NCBI GenBank assembly: GCA_964392495.1
Contig: CAYMQX010000001.1
Location: 1 to 28,425, forward strand
DNA length: 28,425 nt
Direction of reading: 5' to 3'
Source: an uncultured Anaerolineaceae bacterium
GTDB lineage: Bacteria > Chloroflexota > Anaerolineae > Anaerolineales > Villigracilaceae
A program made the position numbers and the translations under genes. How positions within the stretch are numbered: position 1 is the stretch's first letter; each line of letters opens with the position of its first letter. Below the pieces are notes generated by a model. It saw nothing but the letters and a program-made list of their open reading frames with translations, was not told where the DNA came from and did not search any database. Positions 2,017 to 22,607 of this stretch are shown piece by piece.

Positions 2017-3417
2017 TCAGGGTTGGCTGGTCAGGGCGGCTTCCGTGGCCAATGATTCAAAGCTTGGAATGGTCGGCACCACGGATTTCCAAAGGTCGAA
2101 GGTCTCCACCTTATAGGTATCGCGAAGTGAGGTGAGGAAATCATTGAAGACCTTGTCGGTGGCGGACTTATAGGCAGAGGCATCCAGAGGCCGCTCTTCG
2201 CGGGCAATCACCTGGATCACATGCCAGCCAAAATCGCTTTTCACCGGCTGGCTGATCTCACCGACCTTGAGAGAGAAGGCGGCCTCCTCAAAGGGGGCCA
2301 CCATGGCTCCCCTGCCGAACCAGCCCAGGTCGCCGCCCTGGGCGGCGGTGCCGGTATCCTGCGAGCGCTTTGCTGCAATCTCACCAAAATCCTCCCCATG
2401 CTTCAGGGATTCGATGATGTTCAGGGCCTCGACTTCATCGGCCACCAGGATGTGCCGTGCGCGGACCTGCTCCTCGACCCGGGGAACATCCTTCGTGACC
2501 TGGTCATAAAGCTTCTGGCGGAGCAAATCGGTGCGGAAGAGCTCGCGATATTGGGCTTCGGTCAGCCCATATTTTGCGAAGTGCTTCAATTTGTCGGCAT
2601 ACTGCTGCTGAAACCCTTCCAGGGTATAAGCGGTGGCCGTAGGTGAAGGCGTGGGGCTTCCACTCAGTGTGGGTGTGGGCGGGAAGGTGGCCGTTGCGGT
2701 GGCAGTCGGCTCCAGGGTCGCCGTTGGGGTGGCGGTGGAGGCCGGAGGGGTCCCGCTGAGATCCTGCACGGAAGCTGTGGTGGATGGAACCGGGGAGGCT
2801 GCCGCAGTGGAGGTGGGTGTTGAGGATGGTACGGCTGTGAATTCCGAGGTGGCCGTGATGTACTTCAGGATGTCAGGGGAATCCGTTGGCAGGGTAACAG
2901 GCGTGGGGGTGATGGTGGGAGTGGGAGTGCCATTCGGAAAATAGTTCTCGGCGGATTGAATGGCATCCTCGACCTCTTGATCGCTTACGGTAATCCCGCG
3001 CTTGGCGCTTTCCTGGCGGATTAATTCCTCGTTGACCATGGCGTCAATGACGCTCTGACCGAGGGCCTGGGCGTTGTCCAATTGGCTTTGGATCTGCTGA
3101 AGTTGGGTGCTTACATCGATGCCATACTGCTGGTAGATGTAATATTGTTGGTAAGTATTTAACAATCCTTCACGTTGGACCTTGGCGCGGGTCTGGAATT
3201 CCGCGGAGGTGATTTCCACGTTCCCGACCCTGGCAACCGGTTTCTGAAGCTGGAAGTAATTAACGTCCAACCAGCCATAAACCAGTAAACCCGCCGAAAC
3301 AACGAGGATTCCGACAAAGCTGATAAGGATCAGGCGGGTCTGGCGGCGTTCGCGTTCGAGGCGGGCGAGGTGCTTGCGGGTATGGACTACAGGTTTTGGA
3401 GCCCTGTTGTCGGCCAT
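2017..3417 (-). CDS. Membrane-anchored PrsA/SurA-like foldase (SurA N-domain plus PpiC/parvulin PPIase) with Thr/Pro-rich insert
   Basis: Basic N-terminus, then one TM helix (LILISFVGILVVSAGLLVYGWL) and VARVGNVEIT. Parvulin motifs are VRARHILV, FGEIAAKRSQD, GGDLGWF, FEEAAFSL and GWHVIQV. SD AGGAG at 3425-3429. Confidence 0.9.
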   Translation of the reverse strand: MADNRAPKPVVHTRKHLARLERERRQTRLILISFVGILVVSAGLLVYGWLDVNYFQLQKPVARVGNVEITSAEFQTRAKVQREGLLNTYQQYYIYQQYGIDVSTQLQQIQSQLDNAQALGQSVIDAMVNEELIRQESAKRGITVSDQEVEDAIQSAENYFPNGTPTPTITPTPVTLPTDSPDILKYITATSEFTAVPSSTPTSTAAASPVPSTTASVQDLSGTPPASTATPTATLEPTATATATFPPTPTLSGSPTPSPTATAYTLEGFQQQYADKLKHFAKYGLTEAQYRELFRTDLLRQKLYDQVTKDVPRVEEQVRARHILVADEVEALNIIESLKHGEDFGEIAAKRSQDTGTAAQGGDLGWFGRGAMVAPFEEAAFSLKVGEISQPVKSDFGWHVIQVIAREERPLDASAYKSATDKVFNDFLTSLRDTYKVETFDLWKSVVPTIPSFESLATEAALTSQP

Positions 3418-3821: not shown

Positions 3822-4238
3822 CTAGAACGGGAATTCATCTTCGGAAGCCGCCGAATCCTCGGCGGGGGCGGCCTCGCCATCCTGCCCGTGACTGGCGACG
3901 TCCCGACGGTCGCCCAACATCATCATCTCGTTGGCAACGATCTCGACGCTGGTGTGTTTCGAGCCTTCCTTGTCATCCCAGCGTCGGGTCTGAAGGCGAC
4001 CCTCGATAAAGACCTGCTGGCCTTTGACGAGATACTGCTTGCAGATCTCAGCGAGGTTTCCCCAGGCAACGATATTGAACCATTCCGTCTCGCTGTGGCG
4101 TTCGCCGTCCGCACTGTTCCATGACCGGCTGACAGCCACAGTGAAGGTGGTTACCGGGCGACCGGAGGGGGTGTAGCGCATTTCGGGGTCGCGCCCCAGA
4201 TGGCCAATGATCATGACTTTATTAAGGCCTCGGCTCAT
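3822..4238 (-). CDS. ssb: Single-stranded DNA-binding protein
   Basis: OB fold (LNKVMIIGHLGRDPEMRYT...EGRLQTRRW) with acidic C-terminal tip SEDEFPF. Confidence 0.98.
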   Translation of the reverse strand: MSRGLNKVMIIGHLGRDPEMRYTPSGRPVTTFTVAVSRSWNSADGERHSETEWFNIVAWGNLAEICKQYLVKGQQVFIEGRLQTRRWDDKEGSKHTSVEIVANEMMMLGDRRDVASHGQDGEAAPAEDSAASEDEFPF

Positions 4239-11122: not shown

Positions 11123-11938
11123 CTAGAAGGCAATCTCACCGATCTGCTCGAAATCCAGATCGTTTTCAGCCTGCAGCCCCCACTCCGCATCGCGATCAGA
11201 TTCCGCTGCGGCGGCCTGGCCCCTTTCACAATATGAACGATAGGTGCAGTAACTGCATTTGGACACATCATCAGTTTTGAGAAAATCCCGGATGGTGAGA
11301 ATCTCTGCGGAGATCGCTTCGATCGCATCCCAGTCGCGCTGGAATTTGGCGGGGCTATATTCAAAGACCTCAGACCTATCTGGAAATTCAGGGAACCAGT
11401 ATTGCATTTTGATGTTCTGCGGCGGAACTGTCTCTCTGCCCACCAGGAAGCCTCCGGAGCGTACCAGCAGGGCGGGATAAACGCGGGTCTGCCAGCGCGA
11501 CTCAAGCCAATCCCTGCGCGGCTGATGGGTATATGTCTTCCAGTCGTAGATCAGGAGATTTTCACCGCGGATGGCGATCAGGTCATATTTGGCCGTGATG
11601 CGCACCGAACCGGCGTGGGCGGACAAAGAATATTCAGGAAACAAGGCGCTGTCATGGGTTATGGGACTATGTTCGAGGAAATTCAGCCACCAACGACTCA
11701 GGTTGGGCGTGGCGGCCATACGACCCAATTTCTCCCCATCCATTCCCAGGAGCATCTGTTGAACCAGGCGATGGAATAGCTGGCCCTCCTGCTGCTTTTT
11801 TTCATTCTCCAGTCCCGGCTCGGATTCCAGCGCAGGATAGGTCAGATGGTCCAGGTAATGCAGTTTGAAGCGCCTGGGACAATCTGCGTAATCCTGGATC
11901 GAGGATTGTGAAAGCATGATCTGGGAACGTTCAGTCAT
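11123..11938 (-). CDS. Stand-alone PD-(D/E)XK nuclease, RecB/AddB/Cas4-like, with predicted 4Fe-4S staple
   Basis: LSQSSIQDYADCPRRF, GQLFH, AKYDLI, IYDWKT and WQTRVY (QxxxY), plus C-terminal CSYCTYRSYC. That gives one N-terminal and three C-terminal Cys. Confidence 0.88.
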   Translation of the reverse strand: MTERSQIMLSQSSIQDYADCPRRFKLHYLDHLTYPALESEPGLENEKKQQEGQLFHRLVQQMLLGMDGEKLGRMAATPNLSRWWLNFLEHSPITHDSALFPEYSLSAHAGSVRITAKYDLIAIRGENLLIYDWKTYTHQPRRDWLESRWQTRVYPALLVRSGGFLVGRETVPPQNIKMQYWFPEFPDRSEVFEYSPAKFQRDWDAIEAISAEILTIRDFLKTDDVSKCSYCTYRSYCERGQAAAAESDRDAEWGLQAENDLDFEQIGEIAF

Positions 11939-11966
11939 GGGGTGCCTTTCAGGAAAGGATTTTACC

Positions 11967-12902
11967 TCAGGCCGACTGTTTCGACTTGAGATCCTCCCGG
12001 GAGGCTGTCCTTATTCGGGTGATCTGTACGAGTAGAACGCCCACACCCACCAGAACCAAGCCCAGAATCTCCTTGAGAGTGAGATTCTCTTTCAGGAACA
12101 ACCAGGCCAGCACGGCGATTTGCGGCATCATCAGGCTGTTGATCACGCTGGCTTCGATGGCGGTAAGACTTTGCAGCGTGTTGTTCCAAACCGTGAATGC
12201 AAAAGCGGTATTGATCACTGCCAGCCAGAGGACGATCAGCCAATCCACGGCCGCTATTTTTCCCATTCCCTGTGTTAGGATTCCGATCAGGAGCATGGGA
12301 AACGAACCGGCTGCCATGCTGACGAAGGTAACCATCAGAGGGGAGTAGATGCGGCTGCGGTTGATGTGGCGTCCCAGTAGCGAGCCGAGGACGTTACAGA
12401 TCATGCAGAGCAGCGCAAGGGTAATACCGATCCATTGAGAACCGGAAATGGCAATTGGAAGAAAATACAGCCCCACCCCCAGGATGGTGATGACGGTCCC
12501 TGCCTGCTGCAAGGGGGAAGGGATTTCCCGCAGGACGAAGATACCGGCGATGCCCACCAGAAGGGAACTCAGGTTAAGAACCAGGCTCGTCATGGCCGCA
12601 GGAAGATAGGCGAGAGCCGCGTACTGCAAAGCCTGGGTCAGGCCGACGATCAGGACTCCGAGCAGAATTAAAATTCTCCAGTCCCTGGTTTTCAGGGATC
12701 GAAGCTCGCGGCGATAAGCGGGGTTCAGCAGGACAAATGGCGCCAGGCAGAAGAAAGCCAGGGTGTAACGGAGACCCGCAAAGGTGACGGGTGAAAGGTC
12801 GGATCGCAATCCTATTTTGATAAGGATCCACGATGTTGACCATAGGAAGGTTACGAAAACGGCCTGCAGCCTTGCTGCCAAATGAGAGGGGACGCGGGGC
12901 AT
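11967..12902 (-). CDS. EamA/DMT family transporter
   Basis: About 10 hydrophobic segments in two EamA repeats (FLWSTSWILIK, FAGLRY, AFAFTVWN, WLFLKENL). Confidence 0.9.
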   Translation of the reverse strand: MPRVPSHLAARLQAVFVTFLWSTSWILIKIGLRSDLSPVTFAGLRYTLAFFCLAPFVLLNPAYRRELRSLKTRDWRILILLGVLIVGLTQALQYAALAYLPAAMTSLVLNLSSLLVGIAGIFVLREIPSPLQQAGTVITILGVGLYFLPIAISGSQWIGITLALLCMICNVLGSLLGRHINRSRIYSPLMVTFVSMAAGSFPMLLIGILTQGMGKIAAVDWLIVLWLAVINTAFAFTVWNNTLQSLTAIEASVINSLMMPQIAVLAWLFLKENLTLKEILGLVLVGVGVLLVQITRIRTASREDLKSKQSA

Positions 12903-12908
12903 GGATCG

Positions 12909-12967
12909 ATTATGCCAGAGAATCAGAGCGCGCTGATGCGGAAGATAACAGACAAATCAGATATAAT
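12909..12967. promoter_or_regulatory. Back-to-back -10 elements for EamA (minus) and the ABC-F leader (plus), both apparently leaderless
   Basis: Minus: TG-G-CATAAT (12917-12909), 6 nt before the ATG at 12902. Plus: TATAAT (12962-12967), 7 nt before the ATG at 12975. Neither ATG has an SD, and no convincing -35 was found. Confidence 0.55.
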
Positions 12968-12974
12968 AGCCGGT

Positions 12975-13070
12975 ATGATCCTGGTGAATGAACGCGGTCG
13001 AGCGGCGATCTTCAGAGGTGTACGGGGCTTTATTTTCGGGTGGCCTCCTCGAATCGCGCCTGCCCGCTGA
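12975..13070 (+). CDS. Putative 31-aa leader peptide MILVNERGRAAIFRGVRGFIFGWPPRIAPAR (uORF of the ABC-F attenuator)
   Basis: The ATG lies 7 nt after a perfect TATAAT. The stop lies 25 nt before a strong terminator, and the 3' codons overlap the antiterminator arm. Confidence 0.55.
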   Translation: MILVNERGRAAIFRGVRGFIFGWPPRIAPAR

Positions 13071-13094
13071 GACAACCGGATTGTTGATCTCTAC

Positions 13095-13122
13095 AACCGC
13101 AGGCATTCCTGCGGTTTTTTTT
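13095..13122 (+). terminator. Intrinsic terminator (attenuator) in the ABC-F 5' leader
   Basis: aaccgcagg (13095-13103), CATT loop, cctgcggtt (13108-13116) and an 8-T tract (13115-13122). It ends 45 nt upstream of the ABC-F start, and no full-length plus-strand gene ends here. Confidence 0.85.
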
Positions 13123-13167
13123 GTTTATGTTCCACATTTTTTCTTGTTACATGGGTCGAGGAAATCA

Positions 13168-14796
13168 ATGATACAGATCCAACTTTCCAATGTAACCTTG
13201 GTGCTTGGCGCCAAAAGAATTTTTGACAGCCTGAACTGGGAGATCCAGGCGGGGCAGAAAGTCGGTCTGATCGGAGTGAACGGGGCGGGAAAATCATCCC
13301 TTTTCCGCCTTATTCTGGGAGAGTACTCTTCGGAGTTGGGAGGTGCGGTCACGCGGGGACGCCATGTGACCGTGGGCTGTCTATCGCAAGACCCGGAACT
13401 GGACCCTGCCCAGACCGCCCTGGATGCGGCCTTGCTGGGCAATCCCAGGATCGCCGAACTGGAAACCCAACTCCAGCAGGTGGAATCCAGTTTGGGCGAT
13501 CCATCCGTGTACCAGGATGAACGGAAACTGCAGAATGCATTGGAAAGGCAGCATAAACTGAATGAAGAATATCACAGGTTGGGCGGTGAGTCCTATGCCG
13601 GGCGCGTGCGAGAAGTTTTGAGGGGACTGGGCCTCGAGGTGACGGATTTTAACAGGCCAGTGGCGACGCTGAGTGGCGGTCAAAAGAAGCTGGTGGGCCT
13701 GGCTCGCCTGCTGCTGGTCCGCCCGGATGTGCTGCTGTTGGATGAACCCGACAACCATCTTGACCTGCCGGGAAAGGCCTTCCTGGAGAAGCTGATCCGT
13801 GATTATGAAGGCACAGTCGTATTGATCTCACACGATCGCTATCTGCTGGATGCAGTTGTTACACACATTGCAGAACTGGAGAACAACAAACTGCAGATCT
13901 ATCAAGGCGATTACTCCTCGTATGCAGCGGAGAAAGAAATCCGGTTGGCGAGGCAGGAGGAATTGTTCAAAGCGCAGAGTCAGGAGATCACACGTCTCGA
14001 GAGCGCCATCAAGCGTTTTGCCATCTGGGGCAAGGTGTACGATAACGAAAAATTCGCAGCCAAGGCCAAGAGCATGCAAAAGCGGCTTGATAAGATGGAC
14101 AGGATCGAGAAACCATTATCGAACCGGCGCCGAATGGAGCTGGATCTGGGTGGATGGCGCGGCTCCAACAAGGTGCTGGAACTGAAGCATGTGCAGAAGA
14201 GGTTCGGAGACCGGTGTATCTTTACGGACCTCCATGAGACGATCCGGCATGGGGAACGCGTGGGGTTGATCGGACCGAACGGTGCAGGGAAATCCGTACT
14301 GATGCGCATGGTCCTGGGAATGGAAAAGACCGATGCAGGTGAGATAAAGATCGGTCCCAGCGTGCGGATCGGATGGTATTCACAAGAGCATGAATCACTC
14401 GATCCCGACAAGACTCTGATCGAGCAGGTCCGCTATGCGGGCGGGATGAGCGAAACGCGGGCGACCGCCTTTCTGCTCCGATATCTTTTCACTTACAAAC
14501 AGGCTTCCCAGAGGATCCGGGAACTCTCGGGTGGTGAGCGCAGCCGCTTGCAGCTTGCATTGGTGGTGCTATCGGGGGCCAACCTCCTGCTGCTGGATGA
14601 GCCGACCAATAACCTGGATATCAGCTCAGCGGAGACGCTGGAGGCCGCCCTGGAAGAATTTGAGGGCACGGTGCTGGTAATCTCTCATGACCGTTATTTC
14701 CTTGATCGGACCGTCCAACGATTGCTGGCGATCGAGGGAAATGATCTGGTCTCTTATACAGGCGGTTACAGCGAATATCTTTCCCGAAGGAGCTGA
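13168..14796 (+). CDS. ABC-F family ribosome-associated ATPase
   Basis: Two NBDs (GVNGAGKS / LSGGQKK / LLLDEPDNHLD and GPNGAGKS / LSGGERSR / LLLDEPTNNLD) joined by a helical linker, with no TM segments. Start MIQIQLS at 13168 follows GAGGA. The ORF-track extension to 12988 runs through the terminator. Confidence 0.94.
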   Translation: MIQIQLSNVTLVLGAKRIFDSLNWEIQAGQKVGLIGVNGAGKSSLFRLILGEYSSELGGAVTRGRHVTVGCLSQDPELDPAQTALDAALLGNPRIAELETQLQQVESSLGDPSVYQDERKLQNALERQHKLNEEYHRLGGESYAGRVREVLRGLGLEVTDFNRPVATLSGGQKKLVGLARLLLVRPDVLLLDEPDNHLDLPGKAFLEKLIRDYEGTVVLISHDRYLLDAVVTHIAELENNKLQIYQGDYSSYAAEKEIRLARQEELFKAQSQEITRLESAIKRFAIWGKVYDNEKFAAKAKSMQKRLDKMDRIEKPLSNRRRMELDLGGWRGSNKVLELKHVQKRFGDRCIFTDLHETIRHGERVGLIGPNGAGKSVLMRMVLGMEKTDAGEIKIGPSVRIGWYSQEHESLDPDKTLIEQVRYAGGMSETRATAFLLRYLFTYKQASQRIRELSGGERSRLQLALVVLSGANLLLLDEPTNNLDISSAETLEAALEEFEGTVLVISHDRYFLDRTVQRLLAIEGNDLVSYTGGYSEYLSRRS

Positions 14797-14885
14797 GCGG
14801 ATATCAGCCAGGGCGCTGCATCTTGCATTCCGGATGAAGAAAATCGTCTTATAATTTGCTCATATTTGATTTGAGGAGATACGAC

Positions 14886-16085
14886 ATGGCTGTAAAAAAG
14901 CCAGGTGTAATTGCCATCCTGACCGGCGGCGGTGATGTACCGGGTCTCAATCCCGCCATTCGCGCGGTCACCATCCGCGCCCTGAGGGAGGGATGCAAGG
15001 TGATCGGGATCCGGCGCGGATGGGCGGGGCTGACAGAAATTATCCGGGAAAAAGATGCTGATAACAGCGGGAATTTTACAAACCTGACGGAAGAAATCGT
15101 AAATCGCGCCGGGCGCACCGGCGGAACCTTTCTGCATACCTCGCGCACCAACCCCGCGCGCATGCGGAAATCGGATGTTCCCGAGATTCTGCGCGACAAA
15201 TATATGGACGATAAAAACGATGTTACCCAGGAGGTGCTTAAGAACCTTGACTTCCTTGGGGTGGATACCATCATCCCCATCGGTGGGGACGATACACTTT
15301 CTTATGCGGTCCGGCTCTATCAGGAAGGGGTCAAGATCGTCGCGATCCCCAAGACCATGGACAATGATGTGCCGGGCACGGATTATTGCATCGGCTTCAG
15401 CACCTGTGTCACCCGAACGATCGCGCTGGCCAACAGTCTGCGTACCATTGCCGGTTCGCATGAGCGCTTCCTGGTATTGGAAGTTTTTGGACGCTATGCG
15501 GGGTTCACCGCCATGCTGCCCACCATGGCCGGAGCCGCCAACCGCTGTGTGATTCCGGAGTACCGGTTCGATGTTGACCACCTGACCAGCCTGATGAGCA
15601 AGGACCGAATGCAGAACCCCAGCCGATACTCAATCCTGCTGGTATCTGAAGGTGCCATGTTCGAAGGCGGAGAAATGGTGTTTGAGAAGATGGAGACCGA
15701 CGCCTATGGCCATTCAAAGCTTGGCGGGGTCGGAGATCTGGTCTCGGCCGCCATGCGCGGAATTTCGCCAAAATACAATAACGGGCACACCGTGGAGGCC
15801 GTAACCCAGAAACTGGGCTATATGGTGCGAGGCGGGGACCCCGACGCGATCGACTCGGTAGTGCCGATGGCATTTGGGAACCTGGCCCTGGACTTGATTC
15901 TGAAGGGGATCCACGGCCGGCTGGTGGTACTGAAGAACGGCCGCTATGATAACGTCCCCCTGGATGTGATCACATCCACCAAGAAGCTGGTCAATGTGAA
16001 CCAGTTCTATGATATGGAACGCTACCGTCCCAAGTACGAGAATTTTGAACTTAAGCCACTGTTCATCATGACAAGTGAGCTTTAA
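14886..16085 (+). CDS. pfkA: PfkA-family 6-phosphofructokinase, probably PPi-dependent
   Basis: TGGGDVPGLN, GGTFLHTSR, IGGDDT, PKTMDND and LGYMVRGG. SD GAGGAG precedes the ATG at 14886. Confidence 0.92.
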   Translation: MAVKKPGVIAILTGGGDVPGLNPAIRAVTIRALREGCKVIGIRRGWAGLTEIIREKDADNSGNFTNLTEEIVNRAGRTGGTFLHTSRTNPARMRKSDVPEILRDKYMDDKNDVTQEVLKNLDFLGVDTIIPIGGDDTLSYAVRLYQEGVKIVAIPKTMDNDVPGTDYCIGFSTCVTRTIALANSLRTIAGSHERFLVLEVFGRYAGFTAMLPTMAGAANRCVIPEYRFDVDHLTSLMSKDRMQNPSRYSILLVSEGAMFEGGEMVFEKMETDAYGHSKLGGVGDLVSAAMRGISPKYNNGHTVEAVTQKLGYMVRGGDPDAIDSVVPMAFGNLALDLILKGIHGRLVVLKNGRYDNVPLDVITSTKKLVNVNQFYDMERYRPKYENFELKPLFIMTSEL

Positions 16086-16103
16086 TCCCCGATGGAAGGA
16101 TAT

Positions 16104-16134
16104 AAAGAACCCCGCCTGAAAGGCGGGGCTCTTT
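16104..16134. terminator. Intrinsic terminator between convergent pfk and emfourin genes
   Basis: ccccgcc (16110-16116) / ggcgggg (16122-16128), extended by aaaga/tcttt. On the minus strand it reads aaagagccccgcc-tttca-ggcggggttcttt. Confidence 0.8.
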
Positions 16135-16141
16135 GCGTATT

Positions 16142-16444
16142 CTATTTGGAGCGGGCGCGTGTACGCTTGGAAAGTTCCTGGATCAGCGGGCGCAGATTTG
16201 AAGGCACACTGGTGTCATTGACGCGGACCGTATGTTCAAAATTCTCGGTCTCCACGGTAATCCGGTAACTATAAGTATCACGCGCGGGGCGCGGGGCGAG
16301 ATCCTGGTCCAGATCCAGGAAGTGCGCCTCCTGCAGAAGCTCCCGTATCATGCTGACCTGTTCCGGCGGAAGATCGTCCAGGTCCAGGACGAGGTTTACC
16401 GTGCGGCCCATAAAACCGCCGCTCTGTTCAAAGACGATGCGCAT
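16142..16444 (-). CDS. Emfourin-like protealysin inhibitor
   Basis: 100 aa, MRIVFEQSGGFMG...D.YSYRITVE....HTVRVND...P..LRPLI. It lies directly after an M4 protease with a TGATG stop/start overlap and SD GGAGGA. Confidence 0.88.
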   Translation of the reverse strand: MRIVFEQSGGFMGRTVNLVLDLDDLPPEQVSMIRELLQEAHFLDLDQDLAPRPARDTYSYRITVETENFEHTVRVNDTSVPSNLRPLIQELSKRTRARSK

Positions 16445-17610
16445 CAGCGTTCCTCCTGTTTGGGACCCAGCAAGCCCAGGGAGCGCAATGCGCCGGTCAG
16501 GCATCCGTCGCCGCCGGGAGGTGGGACAGGACCACCAGCGGTGAGGCCGACCTCGGCCCAACCTTTCTGGACGGCCTGCTGTTCGAGGCTGCCGCCTCCA
16601 TAGAGTTCGGCGGCTGCGACGAAGGTCAGGTTTGCGGCGTCTGCAAAGTTGGAATCGGAGACCAGTTTTTGAGTCAGAGCCCGATACCAGATGGCTCCAG
16701 CCTTCTCCCAGGCGTTGCCACCGAGCTCGATCGAGGTCACATAGAAGGCGTGATTGGGGATACCGGAGTTGATATGCACTCCACCATTGTCGTTGAGCGT
16801 GCTGACGTAATCCTTCATATGGGCAGGCTGCGGGTCTTTTCCAAGCACAGGGTCATCATAGGCGGTTCCGGGAGCTTTCATCGAACGGATCCCCACACCA
16901 TTGACTTTGGCAGTGAACAGGCCTTCACCGATAATCCAGTCGGCGTCCGCGGCGGCTTGGTGCAGGTTGTACTGTTTGACCAAGGAGCCGAAAACGTCCG
17001 AGAAGGATTCATTCAGTGCACCGGACTGCGACAGATACCGGAGATTGGCCTCGTACTGGGTAACGCCATGGGTTAATTCATGGCCAATCACGTCGATGGC
17101 AATGGTAAAACGGTTAAAGAGCCGGTCAGCGGGGGGCTGATCCTCGTCGCCGTCGCCATACACCATCTGTTTGCCGTTCCAAAAGGCGTTGTCGTAGCCC
17201 TTCTGATAATGCACTGTGGAATCCAACTTCAGCCCACTGCCATCAATGGAATCCCGGCCGTACACGGCCTTATAGATATCGTAGGTTGCACCGCTGCCAT
17301 CATAGGCTTCGTTGACCCCCGGGTCTGTCGTGGCGGGATCGCCCTCACCGCGCACCTTGGTGCCAGGCAGGGTTGAGCCGTTTTTTGCATCGTAAATGGT
17401 GCGCTGTTTTCCGGCACTCACGCTGCTGCCCATGGAGCCCATGGCAGCACGGGCCTTGCGATCCGTCATCACATTGCGATGACTGCGCAGCCGGTCAGAG
17501 GCGGCAATCGTCCTAAATGCGAAGGCTTGCTGCTGCGGGGTGCCGTTCCGTATGATCTCATCAAGCATGTGGGGGGGAATGATACAAAGGACGGGATCAA
17601 AGCCGTGCAT
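16444..17610 (-). CDS. Protealysin-like M4 metalloprotease
   Basis: Short propeptide with CIIPPHML, YDNAFWNG, HELTH (HExxH), NESFSD and GGVHINSGIPN. No signal peptide. SD AAAGGAG. Confidence 0.95.
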   Translation of the reverse strand: MHGFDPVLCIIPPHMLDEIIRNGTPQQQAFAFRTIAASDRLRSHRNVMTDRKARAAMGSMGSSVSAGKQRTIYDAKNGSTLPGTKVRGEGDPATTDPGVNEAYDGSGATYDIYKAVYGRDSIDGSGLKLDSTVHYQKGYDNAFWNGKQMVYGDGDEDQPPADRLFNRFTIAIDVIGHELTHGVTQYEANLRYLSQSGALNESFSDVFGSLVKQYNLHQAAADADWIIGEGLFTAKVNGVGIRSMKAPGTAYDDPVLGKDPQPAHMKDYVSTLNDNGGVHINSGIPNHAFYVTSIELGGNAWEKAGAIWYRALTQKLVSDSNFADAANLTFVAAAELYGGGSLEQQAVQKGWAEVGLTAGGPVPPPGGDGCLTGALRSLGLLGPKQEER

Positions 17611-17646
17611 ACTCTCTCTCCTTTTTGTAAAGCATCCGGTAGCAAC

Positions 17647-17675
17647 AGTATACGGCGGGGCGATTTTCTTTACAA
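17647..17675 (-). promoter_or_regulatory. sigma70-type promoter of the protealysin-emfourin operon
   Basis: Minus strand TTGTAA (17675-17670), 17 bp spacer, TATACT (17652-17647). Confidence 0.7.
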
Positions 17676-17677
17676 TC

Positions 17678-17699
17678 CCCGAAATCCGGAAATTTCGGG
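17678..17699. repeat. 8-bp inverted repeat, candidate operator
   Basis: cccgaaat (17678-17685), ccggaa spacer, atttcggg (17692-17699), lying between two divergent promoters. Confidence 0.5.
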
Positions 17700-17737
17700 T
17701 GTTTTTTCCGGCATGGGCGACTGTATCAAACGGTGGG

Positions 17738-17766
17738 TTGCATCCACCCCTGGAATATCCTATACT
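17738..17766 (+). promoter_or_regulatory. sigma70-type promoter of the small membrane protein gene
   Basis: TTGCAT (17738-17743), 17 bp spacer, TATACT (17761-17766). SD GGAGG at 17792-17796. Confidence 0.7.
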
Positions 17767-17800
17767 TTAGTCATAAGCTCAGGCAGTCTTTGGAGGTTTT

Positions 17801-18034
17801 ATGCAGACCATTGTGGCCTATCTATTGATTCTGATCGGTATCGGGATGGAGATTATCTCAGTGCTGGCGTGGCTGGGGGTCCTCAAGCCTGCAGGTGAGG
17901 CAAGGGCCTTGCGATCTGTCTCTTTCTGGGATGTGCTCCTGGAACTGCTAAAGCGTGCTCCCTGGCCGGCCGCGGTTGGACTGTTAATGATCTATGCAGG
18001 GCTTAAGCTCCTCGGAGTGGATCTCCCGTTCTGA
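17801..18034 (+). CDS. Small (77 aa) two-TM membrane protein of unknown function
   Basis: It has its own promoter and strong SD, two hydrophobic helices flanking an amphipathic segment, and fills the gap between oppositely oriented genes. Confidence 0.75.
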   Translation: MQTIVAYLLILIGIGMEIISVLAWLGVLKPAGEARALRSVSFWDVLLELLKRAPWPAAVGLLMIYAGLKLLGVDLPF

Positions 18035-18085
18035 ACTGTTCCTGAAAAAACAAGGGTCCGGGCAAGCCGGTTGGGGATCCAAGAT

Positions 18086-20428
18086 CTATTGTGATTGCTT
18101 TTCCTGGAAGCCGATCAACGCCTGGAGGGGTACAGCCAGGAGGGCATCTCCCTGACGTCCGGTATTCCAGGTGATTATCAGGTCGCGGCGCGCCCGGGTG
18201 ATGCCCACATACAGGAGTCGCAAGCGTTCTCTCACGTAATCGAGACGGGCGTGGAGGGTGGGGACACCTTCCTCATACCAGTCATATGCACCCATGGAGA
18301 GTGCCGAATTGAGTTGGTCCAGGGCTTCGGACTCAAGGTTCAGATTGCCGCGGATAAACCATTTTTCTGATATATAACGGTCCGCCGCCTGCAGGGAGGG
18401 GAAGTCGTAGTTATTGACGGACATCAAGTACACGCGGTCCCATTCCAAGCCCTTGGCCTTGTGCATGGTAGTAACAACCACCCGGCCGCGATGGCGATCG
18501 GGATCGAAACCGGAATCATCGGGCGAGAAGCCAATGAAGCGGCGCTCGTTGCGGGCGATAACCGTCAGTTCAGCGGTCAACTCCGGCAGCCTGTATTCAG
18601 GGTGATCCAACGCGGCGCGCCGAAGGACTGAGGCAAGCTTCTGGGCGAGGGCGAGATCTGCAACGCTGGTAAAGATATCCTGTGCCAGGGTTAATAGGAG
18701 TTGGTCGATCGGCAGGGTGACTGCATCCAGCCAGCGTCGGACATGCTCGCGGAACGTTTCAAGCTCGTGGGCCAATTCCTGTGAGGCATGGAGGCCGGCC
18801 AGCCAGTCGTTTTCCGGATTCGGCGCGATGAAGGATTCCACTGCGCTTAGTCGCCGGAGCAATGCGGTGGCGGTGGCGAGCAGCTTTTTTCGACTGGAAT
18901 TGATCTGCGCAGAGTCGGCATCTTCCCCGGGAGTATCTTCATCCTGTGGAGCCCGATCAACACCGAGTGCCTCGTGAGCAGATGTCACGGTGGCGGGGGT
19001 TTCTCCAACCTGAGGGTTGATGGTGTCTTCACGCCAATCACGCCGCCAGACCTGGTATGCCTTGGAAAGCTTTGAAGCAGACTGGGGGTCTGCAAGATAA
19101 CCAATGAGGAGGCCGAGAGCGCCCGCTGCTGCACGCGTGTTGGATGTGCTGGCAAGGAACTCAAGATAATCAATGCCGCGCTGCTTGAGGACATTGATCA
19201 GGTCTACACCGCGCAGGTTGCGCGGGACCAGCACGGCTACGGTGGATTCTGGATGATCCGGGAGCCAGCGCGCCAGGGATGCAGCTACTGCATTGACCTC
19301 CTCATCCGGGGTCATGCGCCTGGCCACCAGGTGGATGGCGCCGGGATCCGCTGGAGGGTTGGGCTGGGGATCGCCGATCGGGGCGGGATGGATGTGAGGA
19401 AGGCCGAGCGCAGATCGGACCTCGGGGACCGGATGGTCGGAAGTGACCCAATCTACGAGATGGTTGGCCAGATCGAGAATGGCAGGCTGAGAACGACCGG
19501 ATTCTGGCATGTCCACACTGGGATTTTCGCGTATGAAAACGCGCAGGAGTTCAGGCGAGGCGGTGGTGAAGGTCTCGAAAATAGCCTGGTTGGGATCTCC
19601 CACGCGCACCCAGTTGCCTCCGGGGCCAGAGAGCAGCTCAAGGATATTCTGCTGCAGGCGGCTCGAATCCTGGGCTTCATCTTCCAAAACAAAGGGGAAA
19701 CGATGACGCAATCGTAGCAGGTACTCGGGATCCAGTTCAAGTAGGTCAAGTGCAAGCCGGATCAGGTCGTCGAAATCCACGGCGGCGCGATAGGTGAGGG
19801 CGCGTTGATAATCAGAGTAGATGGACAAACCCATCTCGGCCAGGGGCAGCGGGCCGGGGGCGCGGTCTAAAAGAAGCCTGAGCTTGTCGGGGGTAAGCCG
19901 GCGATCCTTCGCCGAGCGGATGAAAGCCAGGGCTACATCAGAGATGAGCTCGGGGAGCGGCTGGCGGCGGACCCAGTCGCGGCGGGAATCCTCCAGTTGT
20001 GGATCCAGCAGGTCATCCAGAAGGTGGGCATTGGCCGCCAGCCAGGCATTGACGGCTTCACGGCGAATGAACTCGGCCTCGCGGTCGTCAATAATCCCGA
20101 ACTGGTTTTCCAATCCCACACGTGAGGGCTTTTCGCGGACGATATCATGCGCCAGTCCATGCAGGGTGCGGACCCGGTATCTGTAAAGAGCATGGAGTGG
20201 ATTATCAAAGAATTGCTTGATACGGCGCTCGAAATTATCGACCGCGGAGTTGACAAGGGTGACGATCAGAATCTCCTGCCCATCGCCAAGCTGGCCTCGC
20301 TGGATGATATCAGCGGCGAGTTTGGAGAGTATCTGGGTCTTGCCGGCGCCGGGAACAGCGGCAATGCCCAGACGGCCACTCCGGTAGCGGAGAATTTGAG
20401 ATTGGGAGGGACGGGGCTGGAAAGGCAT
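18086..20428 (-). CDS. SF1A (UvrD/PcrA/AddA-like) ATP-dependent helicase without a nuclease domain
   Basis: Motif I AVPGAGKT, Ib RTLHGLA, DFDDLI, II DEAQD, III VGDPNQAIF, V TMHKAKGLEWD and VI ERLRLLYVGITRAR. The protein ends about 35 aa after motif VI. Confidence 0.92.
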   Translation of the reverse strand: MPFQPRPSQSQILRYRSGRLGIAAVPGAGKTQILSKLAADIIQRGQLGDGQEILIVTLVNSAVDNFERRIKQFFDNPLHALYRYRVRTLHGLAHDIVREKPSRVGLENQFGIIDDREAEFIRREAVNAWLAANAHLLDDLLDPQLEDSRRDWVRRQPLPELISDVALAFIRSAKDRRLTPDKLRLLLDRAPGPLPLAEMGLSIYSDYQRALTYRAAVDFDDLIRLALDLLELDPEYLLRLRHRFPFVLEDEAQDSSRLQQNILELLSGPGGNWVRVGDPNQAIFETFTTASPELLRVFIRENPSVDMPESGRSQPAILDLANHLVDWVTSDHPVPEVRSALGLPHIHPAPIGDPQPNPPADPGAIHLVARRMTPDEEVNAVAASLARWLPDHPESTVAVLVPRNLRGVDLINVLKQRGIDYLEFLASTSNTRAAAGALGLLIGYLADPQSASKLSKAYQVWRRDWREDTINPQVGETPATVTSAHEALGVDRAPQDEDTPGEDADSAQINSSRKKLLATATALLRRLSAVESFIAPNPENDWLAGLHASQELAHELETFREHVRRWLDAVTLPIDQLLLTLAQDIFTSVADLALAQKLASVLRRAALDHPEYRLPELTAELTVIARNERRFIGFSPDDSGFDPDRHRGRVVVTTMHKAKGLEWDRVYLMSVNNYDFPSLQAADRYISEKWFIRGNLNLESEALDQLNSALSMGAYDWYEEGVPTLHARLDYVRERLRLLYVGITRARRDLIITWNTGRQGDALLAVPLQALIGFQEKQSQ

Positions 20429-20528
20429 TCTGTATCCTATTGAGTGGAGGCGCTTTCAGTTGGCGATCCGGATAGACGATGAAAAGCGTGTCGGCCTCGG
20501 CCGTCGCTTTGCCGCATGTATTTTTCGT

Positions 20529-22607
20529 CTAGCCGGGTGCGGGCGGGTTAAGCAGGCGTTGGAAGATCCTGAGCAGATCCCCACGCTGCTCGAAGCCGGC
20601 TTCCCCCAATTCCGACAGGCACAGGTAAACACGTTCGCGGCAGCGGTGGAGCAATCCGATGACGAGCCGGTGAAGCGATTCGCGCGCGGCCCAGACCTCG
20701 TCCGTGTCGCTCCAGAGGCGTCCGGCAGGCCACTCGCGGGAGAGCACATACGGATGGGTGACCGGCTGCGCAAGCCGCTCATACCACTGTGCTGAACCTA
20801 CGTCCAGCCAGAACTGTACGGCAGCGGGACGATTCATCATCAGGAAGGTGTAGGCAGGTGCGACCAACACGGCATCCTTGTCATTGGATTGCCAACCCTC
20901 CAGATGCTGTGCGGCAATGACGCCCTCCTGAAGCATCGCGTAATATTCTGTCCCGACCTGGCGGGAATCAACCAGCACAGACTCGGTTACCTGTCGGAAA
21001 CCACGTACTGAATCCACAAGGTTGGATGCGACCCGGATCGAATCCAGTCGATCATGGAAGCGGAAGCCGGTCTGGGAAAGCACCTCGCCAAAGAGCTTGC
21101 GGAGGAAATGATCCAGATATAGCGGCTCCATGTTGCGATAGGCCAGCAGCCATTCGCGCAGTGCGGCATAGCGTAGACCAACCGAGAAAGTGATCCGCTC
21201 CTGGGTTTCCGGCCGGATTCCTTCAAAAGGGGCAAGGGAAAGGTCGCGAGGTCGATAAACAATATCGGTCAGCAATTGGGCACGGACCAGATCAAGACCT
21301 TCCAGTGATTCCATCAGGGCGTAAGCGATATCGAATTTGGGAGGGTGAACATCCCAGCCTGGATGTGCAAGGGCGGCCAAGGTCAGCAGTGTATGCGTGG
21401 CCGGCTCATCCTTGAGCGAGCGGGATGGACGATGAGTTCGCCAGGGAACTCCCAGCCTTTCCAACCGGTTCACCAGGGAAAAGCGTAGCGCATCTGAAAG
21501 ATAGGGTCCCAGGATCGCAATTTCCGAGGGCGGCAGTCCCGCCTCGATCAACGCATGGACTTCGTTGGAAACGCCATCCAGGAGCTCCGGAAAGAAATGG
21601 GAGTGGATGACTGATAGCGCTTCGGTTTCCAATGGTCTGGAAGGATCCGGTGCGGGAGGTGAGATGGCCGCGGACAGGCTGGCGCTCAGGCCTTCGATCG
21701 CCGGGGACATGACAAAGGAATCTGTCAGAACGATATGCTGCCCGCACAGGTCGCGCAGCTCCCAGGCAGTGGCAGGGTCCGCGCCCAGAAAAAGCCGAAA
21801 ACCGCCTCCCTCATCAAAGACAAACAGCGCGGACTGCAGCCCTGGCAGCAGAGCGCGTACGAAATCGTGAGCGCGCGGGGCGTCCTCTTCCACATTGTCG
21901 TAAACAAGGTGGCGATAGGTGCGGGTAAGATAAGCGTTCACTATTTCCTGCGGAAAAAGAATGTCGGCAAAGATCTCCAACTGCAGGGAAAAGTCCAGTA
22001 GATTGTTCTCAAGACAGTACTGCCGAAAACGATTGACACAATCCTGAACATTGGCATAAATGTTCCGCTGCGCTGGGTCTCCGAGATAGGCTGCCTCCAG
22101 CCGGGAGGCGATCCCGGTGTGGGGAAAACCGATCAGTGCAGCCTTGTTCAGATTGTCGAGAAGCTGCTGATAGAGCCGATTGCGGTCGATTGTGATGGAC
22201 TCGAAATAACCCTGATCCAGAAGCGGACGCACGATGTGGGACATGTGGTACTGAGCCGTCTCCAAATCAAGGAAGGTGGGGGGATAGTCGGGATGGGAAA
22301 AGCCAGCCGCCTCCGCAGCGAGAGGCCAGAACAACCCGGTCATGCGCCTGGCCAGGCCGCCGATAGTGGCGGAGGTGAGTATCCCTCCGGCGTAAGGTTT
22401 TTGTTCAAAGCTGGCCAGGTAGGGCTCCTGGAGGAAGCGTTGGGGGGTCATCAGGAGAATGGAATCTACAGGGACGCCCTGCTCGATCAGGAAATGCAAA
22501 CGCTCCACGGCGGAGGCGGTCTTTCCGGTCCCGGCCGGGCCAGAAAGAAAGGCCCGGCTGTCGAGAGGAAGGTGTACGATCTGTTGTTGCGCCGGAGTCA
22601 GTTCCAT
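20529..22607 (-). CDS. Degenerate SF1 helicase-fold protein (AddB/AdnA/RecC-like scaffold), no nuclease domain
   Basis: LTPAQQQIV and Walker A GPAGTGKT are intact. Later motifs are recognisable but decayed (YDNVEED for DExQD; FDEGGGFRLFLGAD; LLHRCRERVYL). Confidence 0.75.
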   Translation of the reverse strand: MELTPAQQQIVHLPLDSRAFLSGPAGTGKTASAVERLHFLIEQGVPVDSILLMTPQRFLQEPYLASFEQKPYAGGILTSATIGGLARRMTGLFWPLAAEAAGFSHPDYPPTFLDLETAQYHMSHIVRPLLDQGYFESITIDRNRLYQQLLDNLNKAALIGFPHTGIASRLEAAYLGDPAQRNIYANVQDCVNRFRQYCLENNLLDFSLQLEIFADILFPQEIVNAYLTRTYRHLVYDNVEEDAPRAHDFVRALLPGLQSALFVFDEGGGFRLFLGADPATAWELRDLCGQHIVLTDSFVMSPAIEGLSASLSAAISPPAPDPSRPLETEALSVIHSHFFPELLDGVSNEVHALIEAGLPPSEIAILGPYLSDALRFSLVNRLERLGVPWRTHRPSRSLKDEPATHTLLTLAALAHPGWDVHPPKFDIAYALMESLEGLDLVRAQLLTDIVYRPRDLSLAPFEGIRPETQERITFSVGLRYAALREWLLAYRNMEPLYLDHFLRKLFGEVLSQTGFRFHDRLDSIRVASNLVDSVRGFRQVTESVLVDSRQVGTEYYAMLQEGVIAAQHLEGWQSNDKDAVLVAPAYTFLMMNRPAAVQFWLDVGSAQWYERLAQPVTHPYVLSREWPAGRLWSDTDEVWAARESLHRLVIGLLHRCRERVYLCLSELGEAGFEQRGDLLRIFQRLLNPPAPG

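Follow-up and report, generated by a model that had tools for sequence, protein, structure and literature searches.

A helicase, an impaired helicase paralogue and a separate iron-sulphur nuclease as a candidate DNA-end-processing module of the Anaerolineae

Do two adjacent helicase-like genes without nuclease domains, and a free nuclease gene some 6 kb away, encode the parts of a single machine? The question is raised by a 28,425-nucleotide (nt) stretch of contig CAYMQX010000001.1 (assembly GCA_964392495.1, positions 1 to 28,425, forward strand) from an uncultured Anaerolineaceae bacterium, referred to here at its full length as the window. It contains three co-oriented minus-strand genes encoding a helicase-like protein (H2), a helicase (H1) and a nuclease (NUC), for which a sequence-only reading, made from the letters and their open reading frames (ORFs), had proposed a three-piece resection machine of the AddAB or AdnAB kind. 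On balance, our analysis favours the view that H2, H1 and NUC constitute one DNA-end-processing helicase-nuclease module, ancestral to the Anaerolineae (Chloroflexota). Judged from the gene orders found in relatives, this module appears to have begun as a three-gene operon in the order H2-H1-NUC, with recJ frequently next in line.

The basic layout is as first read, all features being located where they had been placed from the letters (Table 1). The two genes of superfamily 1 (SF1) fold are tandem and co-oriented, H1 lying 3' of H2 across a gap of 100 nt, and NUC, a stand-alone nuclease with four conserved cysteines, is found downstream on the same strand at a distance of 6147 nt from H1. H1 matches the Pfam families UvrD-helicase (1.2e-39) and UvrD_C (5e-20), and the claim that one of the two helicases possesses every motif is upheld as motifs Q, I (AVPGAGKT), Ia, II (EDEAQD), III, IV, V and VI do not vary among 19 orthologues. 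H1 is an SF1A protein by fold and by motifs Q, I, Ia and II-VI, and is presumed from its sequence to be a 3'-to-5' motor. Neither helicase carries a C-terminal nuclease, again as claimed; Pfam detects no nuclease domain in H1, and neither Pfam nor the structural model described below reveals a fused nuclease in H2.

H2 is recognised by Pfam over a short region, the UvrD-helicase match being limited to residues 3-54 (1e-6). An AlphaFold (AF2) model computed from a 67-sequence alignment is of high confidence (predicted local distance difference test score, pLDDT, 90; predicted template modelling score, pTM, 0.86) and consists, from end to end, of a complete four-subdomain SF1A fold. A Foldseek search with this model returned UvrD at the lowest E-value (3e-22) and template modelling (TM) scores of 0.67 for AdnB, 0.64 for AdnA (root-mean-square deviation, rmsd, 6.7; 18% identity) and 0.60-0.62 for AddB; because all of these are SF1A proteins, with TM scores of 0.52-0.67, the fold cannot place H2 with AddB or AdnA over UvrD. 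Single-sequence searches of H2 and NUC against the Protein Data Bank (PDB) gave nothing useful, and profile searches produced weak matches to UvrD, AdnA, AddB and ACE1, the AddB match to the H2 profile (E 0.036) being confined to the P-loop region. H2 is a remote paralogue of H1, the two families aligning over 494 columns at 19% identity (hhalign probability 97.4%, E 1e-11). Its family is large, with >4900 matches that form 1048 clusters at 50% identity, all ~700 amino acids (aa) in length. Among 150 H2 representatives screened for Rosetta-stone fusions, the length outliers P0367, P0369, P0387, P0314 and P0316 contain no nuclease domain, and P0369 is an apparent gene-calling chimera with FtsX.

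Conservation within H2 was counted in 110 representatives of the 50%-identity clusters. The Walker A motif, G-x-x-G-x-G-K-T, is near-invariant (G23, G26, G28, K29, T30). Motif II takes the form h-h-h-h-D-N-h-E-E, with D237 present in 98/110, N238 in 100/110, E240 in 107/110 and E241 in 109/110 sequences, and a motif VI-like element, G-L-x-x-R-C-R, is retained to a similar degree (G651 99/110, L652 109/110, R655 96/110, C656 98/110), as is a remnant of motif III, D..GG[YF]RxFLGAD. In a profile alignment to UvrD, the D-N pair of H2 falls on the Walker B D-E, asparagine occupying the place of the catalytic glutamate. The sequence-only reading was therefore correct in describing a kept Walker A and variant motifs II and VI, and incorrect in calling the latter decayed; their conservation argues for fixed variants and not for random decay. 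Since Walker A is kept and the Walker B glutamate is replaced by asparagine, H2 is predicted to bind ATP and to hydrolyse it poorly or not at all, a condition known from AddB and, in functional terms, from AdnA (PMC13000450). It is probably a catalytically impaired scaffold or single-stranded DNA (ssDNA) conduit subunit, akin to AddB and AdnA as had been suggested, that is, an ATP-binding, probably non-motor SF1A paralogue. A Trp-rich and nearly invariant segment at residues ~595-633 (QFWLD.GS.GW…QPLTHPYVLSR.W..G..W), modelled at high confidence without regular secondary structure, is a candidate partner-binding surface.

NUC matches Pfam PDDEXK_1 (1.5e-27) and belongs to a family with 2881 matches. 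Alignments reveal invariant residues C20, C228, C231, C237, E102, K117, D119, D132-W-K134 and Q150-xxx-Y154, and retention of all the catalytic and Fe-S residues predicts an active enzyme. In Foldseek searches with the NUC model (AF2, pLDDT 81.8), AdnA ranks first with its Fe-S nuclease domain (E 1.4e-7, TM 0.62-0.64, rmsd 3.9-4.8, identity 16-18%), followed closely by ACE1, an Argonaute-associated Cas4-like protein, Exo5, Cas4 SSO0001 and RecE, with AddB at 4e-4.

Resemblance to Cas4 raises the alternative that NUC is a CRISPR-adaptation Cas4 whose Cas1 and Cas2 partners are encoded elsewhere. NUC does have the Cas4 architecture, a PD-(D/E)XK fold with four cysteines, in which the Cys, DxK and QxxxY residues are invariant, and a match to the Cas4 model TIGR00372 is obtained. 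However, this match reaches 20.2 bits where the cut-off is 65, the 271-aa NUC ends in a family-specific tail, and no cas genes or repeat arrays are detected in the window or beside NUC in ~30 NUC loci. Assignment to the CRISPR-adaptation Cas4 proteins was rejected on this evidence, and the pairing with Cas1/Cas2, which the sequence-only reading had itself named as an alternative, appears extremely improbable.

The tail provides a possible means by which a free nuclease could be held in a complex. Residues 249-271 form an acidic linker that is disordered in the model (pLDDT <50), and the chain terminates in the motif [FL]D[FIVL][DNQ][FL][EN]Q[IV]xE[IV][AE][FY]-COOH in 18/18 orthologues examined, with conservative substitutions only. 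A disordered tail bearing a conserved terminal motif is what a subunit that is tethered in trans would be expected to carry, and the motif is a probable docking peptide, as judged from its conservation. The SSB encoded in the window (3822-4238) ends in …SEDEFPF and NUC in …EQIGEIAF; both are acidic tails with a hydrophobic-x-Phe-COOH terminus. Given this resemblance, NUC might use SSB-tail pockets, for example on RecJ; alternatively, the tail may serve specifically to dock NUC on H1/H2.

The order of the genes in relatives was determined in a genome scan with H2, which yielded 80 Anaerolineae loci, 65 of them including 3 kb or more of downstream sequence. In 49/65 loci, H1 follows H2 on the same strand, at distances that extend from codon overlap up to 6.5 kb occupied by inserted genes; in 16/44, NUC follows further downstream of H1, also on that strand. 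The closest long-contig relative (71% identity) keeps the order of the window, DLH, H2, H1, M4, emfourin, PFK, ABC-F, EamA and NUC, the only change being that a further gene, for a membrane protein, separates H2 from H1. Among relatives that branch more deeply (30-53% identity), the three genes form a compact H2-H1-NUC operon whose stop and start codons overlap or nearly touch. The H2-H1 and H1-NUC junctions measure -4/-4 nt in L080 (Longilinea; H2 identity to the window 49%) and 3/24 nt in L079 (50%), are overlapping in L085 (33%) and L087 (30%), and are overlapping or nearly touching in L169, L170 and the P0492 locus (40-41%). Spacing of the three genes thus shrinks with evolutionary distance from the window, which suggests that the ancestral state was a translationally coupled H2-H1-NUC operon. 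The window would then represent a late stage in the break-up of this operon, in which order and strand are still kept, and its 6-kb H1-NUC spacing would be an operon remnant, as inserted genes interrupt an order that is kept tight in relatives. The five genes of the spacer are unrelated insertions in the former operon and lie outside the machine, since the stretch is missing in loci where H1 adjoins NUC. All three genes are intact and under selection in the lineage of the window despite these insertions.

Erosion is visible across loci L005-L084, where unrelated genes enter between H2 and H1 (0-6.5 kb) and between H1 and NUC. L001 encodes a 393-aa multi-pass membrane protein between H2 and H1 (12070-13251), and on this 2.3-Mb contig a frameshift splits H1 into two called genes of 222 and 559 aa (13261-15613), either an assembly error or a recent pseudogene.

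These data also bear on two further explanations of the locus. The first is that proximity is meaningless, NUC being an unrelated solo-Cas4 and H2 the duplicate of a UvrD paralogue, now in decay. Five unrelated genes do separate the helicases from the nuclease in the window, and solo-Cas4 is known to be common in Chloroflexi (PMC5704561). Against this, H2 keeps its full length across 1048 clusters, its fold is modelled confidently and dozens of its residues are invariant; moreover, the tight three-gene operon recurs in several deep clades. Coincidence is largely refuted by this combination of synteny and conservation and is highly unlikely to account for the arrangement.

The second is that the genes serve in anti-phage or anti-plasmid defence as a helicase-nuclease of the Gabija or UvrD-Cas4 type. 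In PADLOC, H1 matches GajB models (1.7e-38) and NUC weakly matches Cas4 and Argonaute-associated Cas4-like models, and UvrD-Cas4 fusions are known from defence contexts (PMC5704561). The PADLOC matches, however, reflect generic UvrD and Cas4 similarity, and no GajA, prokaryotic Argonaute (pAgo) or restriction-modification (RM) partner is present; Gabija (GajA/GajB) was rejected because the similarity of H1 to GajB is generic, GajA is missing and the context is one of housekeeping. No CRISPR array or cas gene occurs in the window, and it is recJ and ruvX that recur beside the genes, not defence islands. The families are large, single-copy in the loci seen, surrounded by housekeeping genes and, among organism-named hits, restricted to Chloroflexota. 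They are vertically inherited core genes, kept in conserved housekeeping synteny across the whole class. A defence role is very unlikely on these grounds; because the genes are core, housekeeping and vertically inherited, and because the partner genes are absent, defence, coincidence and CRISPR adaptation are all disfavoured.

Comparison with known helicase-nucleases suggests that the module would function like AdnAB, AddAB and RecBCD, in that a RecB-family nuclease is combined, in collinear gene order, with a motor and its dead paralogue, while belonging to none of them. This separation follows from the lack of fused nucleases, the presence of one nuclease and not two, scores far under the curated thresholds, and the greater proximity of H1 to PcrA/UvrD. 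Scored against NCBIfam equivalog models, H1 obtains 131 bits for PcrA (cut-off 911), 110 for UvrD (1144) and 126 for a further model among the PcrA/UvrD/Rep set (951); it obtains 66 and 52 bits for the AddA models TIGR02785 (707.65) and TIGR02784 (861), and 70 bits for the RecB model TIGR00609 (696). Orthology of H1 to PcrA/UvrD/Rep, RecB or AddA is ruled out by scores under every curated cut-off. The sequence-only reading therefore fared differently in its two halves; the synteny supports a three-piece linkage, with a nuclease acting in trans, and a role in repair, whereas membership of AddAB or AdnAB is contradicted by the curated thresholds and the missing fused nucleases.

AdnAB provides the closest set of parallels. 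Its AdnB subunit is an active SF1A motor; the paralogous AdnA binds ATP, with no evidence of hydrolysis or of motor activity. The Fe-S PD-(D/E)XK nuclease subdomain of AdnA is located at the fork, where it cuts the 5' strand (PMC13000450). Gene order, inactive subunit before motor, is the same, the top structural match of NUC is AdnA, and the highest TM scores of H2 are to AdnB and AdnA. In contrast, both Adn subunits have a fused C-terminal nuclease, where here the nuclease is one separate gene downstream of the motor gene; the ATPase motifs of AdnA are intact, where H2 shows the Walker B E-to-N change; and H1 scores higher against PcrA/UvrD than against AdnB. AdnAB was found in Actinobacteria only (PMC6452273). 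Membership was rejected as H1 and H2 lack C-terminal nucleases and one nuclease gene is present.

In AddAB of the Bacillus type, AddA acts as the single UvrD-like motor, and AddB is likewise a degenerate helicase-like protein that keeps Walker A and bears an Fe-S RecB-type nuclease; addB precedes addA. AddA and AddB each have a fused nuclease, however, while here the Fe-S nuclease is a separate gene. AddAB was excluded because H1 has no nuclease and falls under the TIGR02785/TIGR02784 cut-offs, and because H2 has no fused nuclease and no match to an AddB curated model. RecBCD shares a single nuclease on a flexible tether and the pairing of an inactivated SF1 paralogue (RecC) with an SF1A motor (RecB), and its order of recC, recB and nuclease last is collinear with H2-H1-NUC. 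It differs in its second, RecD-type motor and in a RecB nuclease that is fused and without an Fe-S cluster; it was excluded on the TIGR00609 score of H1, the lack of a RecC match for H2, and the lack of a RecD-like gene in the window (Pfam and curated models).

The nearest published observation is that of Hudaiberdiev et al. 2017 (PMC5704561), who described a monophyletic solo-Cas4 in many Chloroflexi, an unfused operon of uvrD and a cas4-like gene in Clostridiales, possibly in repair, and UvrD-Cas4-like fusions mostly in RM or defence contexts. Those systems also link a UvrD-like SF1 helicase to a pfam12705 Cas4-like nuclease; they differ in that neither an impaired helicase paralogue nor a link to recJ nor a motif in a C-terminal tail is described in that paper. 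In the literature searched, no publication was found that links a helicase-nuclease to Chloroflexota or Anaerolineae or that describes the H2-H1-NUC module.

Combined, the motif states, folds and gene order are consistent with the following mechanism. We infer that H1 and H2 would form a heterodimer in which H1 is the sole ATP-driven motor, moving 3'-to-5' on one strand like UvrD, PcrA, AdnB and AddA, and H2 is an ATP-binding non-motor partner serving to hold the fork or to guide single strands in the manner of AddB, AdnA and RecC. NUC would be the single nuclease, acting in trans while held through its flexible acidic tail and conserved C-terminal peptide, and would cut the displaced 5' strand at the fork, as do the AdnA Fe-S nuclease domain and the Cas4 5'-3' exonucleases. 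RecJ would then carry 5' resection further, so that RecA could be loaded on the remaining 3' tail, and the module would have its presumed role in recombinational repair.

The part assigned to RecJ derives from gene neighbourhood. In 6/11 tight-operon loci (L077, L080, L087, L169, L170 and the P0492 locus), recJ begins within 0.5 kb after NUC, and the two share 4 nt in L169. A divergent ruvX-yceG pair is located upstream of the operon in four lineages (L080, L085/L086, L169, L170). A gene for an RNase T/DnaQ-like 3'-5' exonuclease (200 aa) overlaps the H2 start in L085 (9457-10059), and a homologue is found ~1.4 kb upstream of H2 in L080 (8048-8566); the protein may be a further accessory nuclease.

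The recJ association is also accommodated by an explanation in which the proteins share a pathway but form no complex. H1, with or without H2, would be a UvrD-like helicase cooperating loosely with free NUC and RecJ, as in RecQ/UvrD-RecJ resection of RecFOR type, and NUC would be a stand-alone 5'-3' exonuclease recruited by its SSB-like tail. UvrD-RecJ and RecQ-RecJ resection operates in RecFOR-type repair, for example in extended synthesis-dependent strand annealing (ESDSA) of Deinococcus. Such systems also combine a UvrD-family helicase with RecJ acting on 5' strands, and recJ is a recurrent fourth gene here; they differ in that they lack both a dedicated inactive paralogue and an Fe-S nuclease and in that their genes do not form a single operon. 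This explanation draws on recJ as the most recurrent additional neighbour, the affinity of H1 to PcrA/UvrD, the frequent distance of NUC from the helicases, and the likeness of the NUC tail to that of the local SSB. It does not fit well with the overlapping stop and start codons, which suggest stoichiometric co-production, with a conserved impaired paralogue, which is typical of obligate heterodimers (AddB, AdnA, RecC), or with the similarity of NUC to the nuclease domain of AdnA, an integrated machine. We regard a shared pathway without a stable complex as the main rival to the single module, and as rather unlikely.

Several observations weigh against a single module as described. A profile of the H1 family searched against solved structures ranks PcrA (8e-46) and UvrD (8e-45) ahead of AdnB (4e-31), AddA (3e-27) and RecB (1e-13); H1 is thus nearer in sequence to PcrA/UvrD, and the H1-H2 pair could therefore be a UvrD-like accessory helicase. 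The order H2-H1-NUC is unlike that expected of a simple split of an AddB/AdnA-like fusion of H2 and nuclease. In many close relatives NUC is >10 kb from the helicases; four NUC-centred loci from the taxonomic order of the window (L002, L003, L167, L168) contain no helicase within 10 kb, and 16/65 H2 loci contain no H1 within 10 kb. LexA boxes of the Cheo type (GAAC-N4-GTTC) number 15 against 9.6 expected, which does not amount to enrichment, and none is upstream of H2, H1 or NUC. A distant H2 clade (G2, ~33% identity; loci L088-L166), sampled from metagenomes by a clade-alignment scan, has neither H1 nor NUC within 6 kb of H2, and H2 may therefore have a role independent of adjacent H1 and NUC. 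In this clade, the gene directly upstream of H2 encodes an FHA-domain protein in 42 loci, and recJ is found just downstream of H2 in 8. As H2-recJ occurs there without adjacent H1 or NUC, the recJ link is broader than the H1/NUC link.

The single-module reading leads to a bolder proposal, which we regard as possible and hold with some doubt, that the Anaerolineae use a fourth class of resection machine beside RecBCD, AddAB and AdnAB. In this class, H1, a hydrolysis-dead and possibly regulatory or sequence-scanning H2, and a free NUC docked via an SSB-tail-like peptide would be coupled to RecJ and would replace the canonical enzymes. In approximately 12% of bacterial genomes, none of RecBCD, AddAB and AdnAB can be recognised (PMC6452273). 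No second helicase or nuclease paralogue was found in the 1.9 Mb of loci covered, a sample too small to bear on canonical AddAB/RecBCD. Members of the Anaerolineae abound in sludge, sediments and soils, and how they repair their DNA has hardly been studied. If the module is the enzyme by which they resect DNA ends, the design of motor, inactive paralogue and Fe-S nuclease works with a single, separate, tethered nuclease, AddAB-like machines are linked to RecJ-dependent resection, and a natural split system becomes available in which scaffold, motor and nuclease roles are separable biochemically. Three large families now annotated 'hypothetical', 'UvrD-helicase domain-containing' and 'PD-(D/E)XK nuclease family' would also gain names.

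Table 1. Positions of the three genes, their motifs, the spacer genes and recJ of related loci (aa, amino acids; strand and basis as available)
Feature	Sequence	Position	Strand	Description or basis
H2	window	20529..22607	-	692-aa SF1A helicase-like paralogue
H2 Walker A GPAGTGKT, residues 23-30	window	22518..22541	-	110-representative alignment
H2 motif II variant DNVEED, residues 237-242	window	21882..21899	-	alignment; aligned to UvrD VDEFQD
H2 motif VI-like GLLHRCR, residues 651-657	window	20637..20657	-	110-representative alignment
H1	window	18086..20428	-	780-aa UvrD/PcrA-type SF1A helicase
H1 Walker A AVPGAGKT	window	20336..20359	-	orthologue alignment
H1 motif II EDEAQD, canonical DE	window	19667..19684	-	orthologue alignment
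NUC	window	11123..11938	-	271-aa stand-alone Cas4/AdnA-type PD-(D/E)XK nuclease, 4-Cys (Fe-S)
NUC fourth Cys ligand C20	window	11879-11881	-	invariant in two alignments
NUC catalytic D132-W-K134, (D/E)xK motif	window	11537..11545	-	invariant
NUC Cys triad CSYCTYRSYC (C228, C231, C237)	window	11228..11257	-	invariant in two alignments
NUC disordered acidic tail, ends LDFEQIGEIAF	window	11126..11194	-	model and alignment
Spacer H1-NUC	window	11939..18085	.	6.1 kb, five genes (Pfam)
M4 peptidase	window	16444-17610	-	Pfam
Emfourin	window	16142-16561	-	Pfam
PFK (phosphofructokinase)	window	14856-16085	+	Pfam
ABC-F ATPase	window	12988-14796	+	Pfam
EamA transporter	window	11967-12902	-	Pfam
recJ	L169	12141-14456		
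recJ	L170	10790-13087		
recJ	L080	15176-17470		
recJ	L077	11650-13944		
recJ	L087	7828-8571		
recJ	L124	8409-10130		

The operon-linked RecJ proteins are 765-771 aa in length, whereas RecJ of clade G2 is 573 aa. The FHA protein of clade G2 is 620-790 aa long with a C-terminal FHA domain (e.g. L124 4035-5981, L089 3871-5964, L094 2447-4318), and its N-terminal 500-600 residues match no Pfam family.

The window itself comes from a Chloroflexota chromosome of Anaerolineales type and is housekeeping in character, with a GC content of 54-60%, and all named homologues are from Anaerolineales, Anaerolineae or Chloroflexi. Scans of the window detected no tRNA, Rfam family or tandem repeat. Within the spacer, the M4 peptidase, of the thermolysin type, adjoins its inhibitor-type partner emfourin, and the two ORFs as listed share ~118 nt, so that the true start of emfourin is probably further downstream. 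Elsewhere in the window (2017-3417), a SurA/PpiC-type peptidyl-prolyl isomerase contains a low-complexity linker of ~100 residues, rich in Pro, Thr, Ser and Ala, which joins the SurA-N and rotamase domains.

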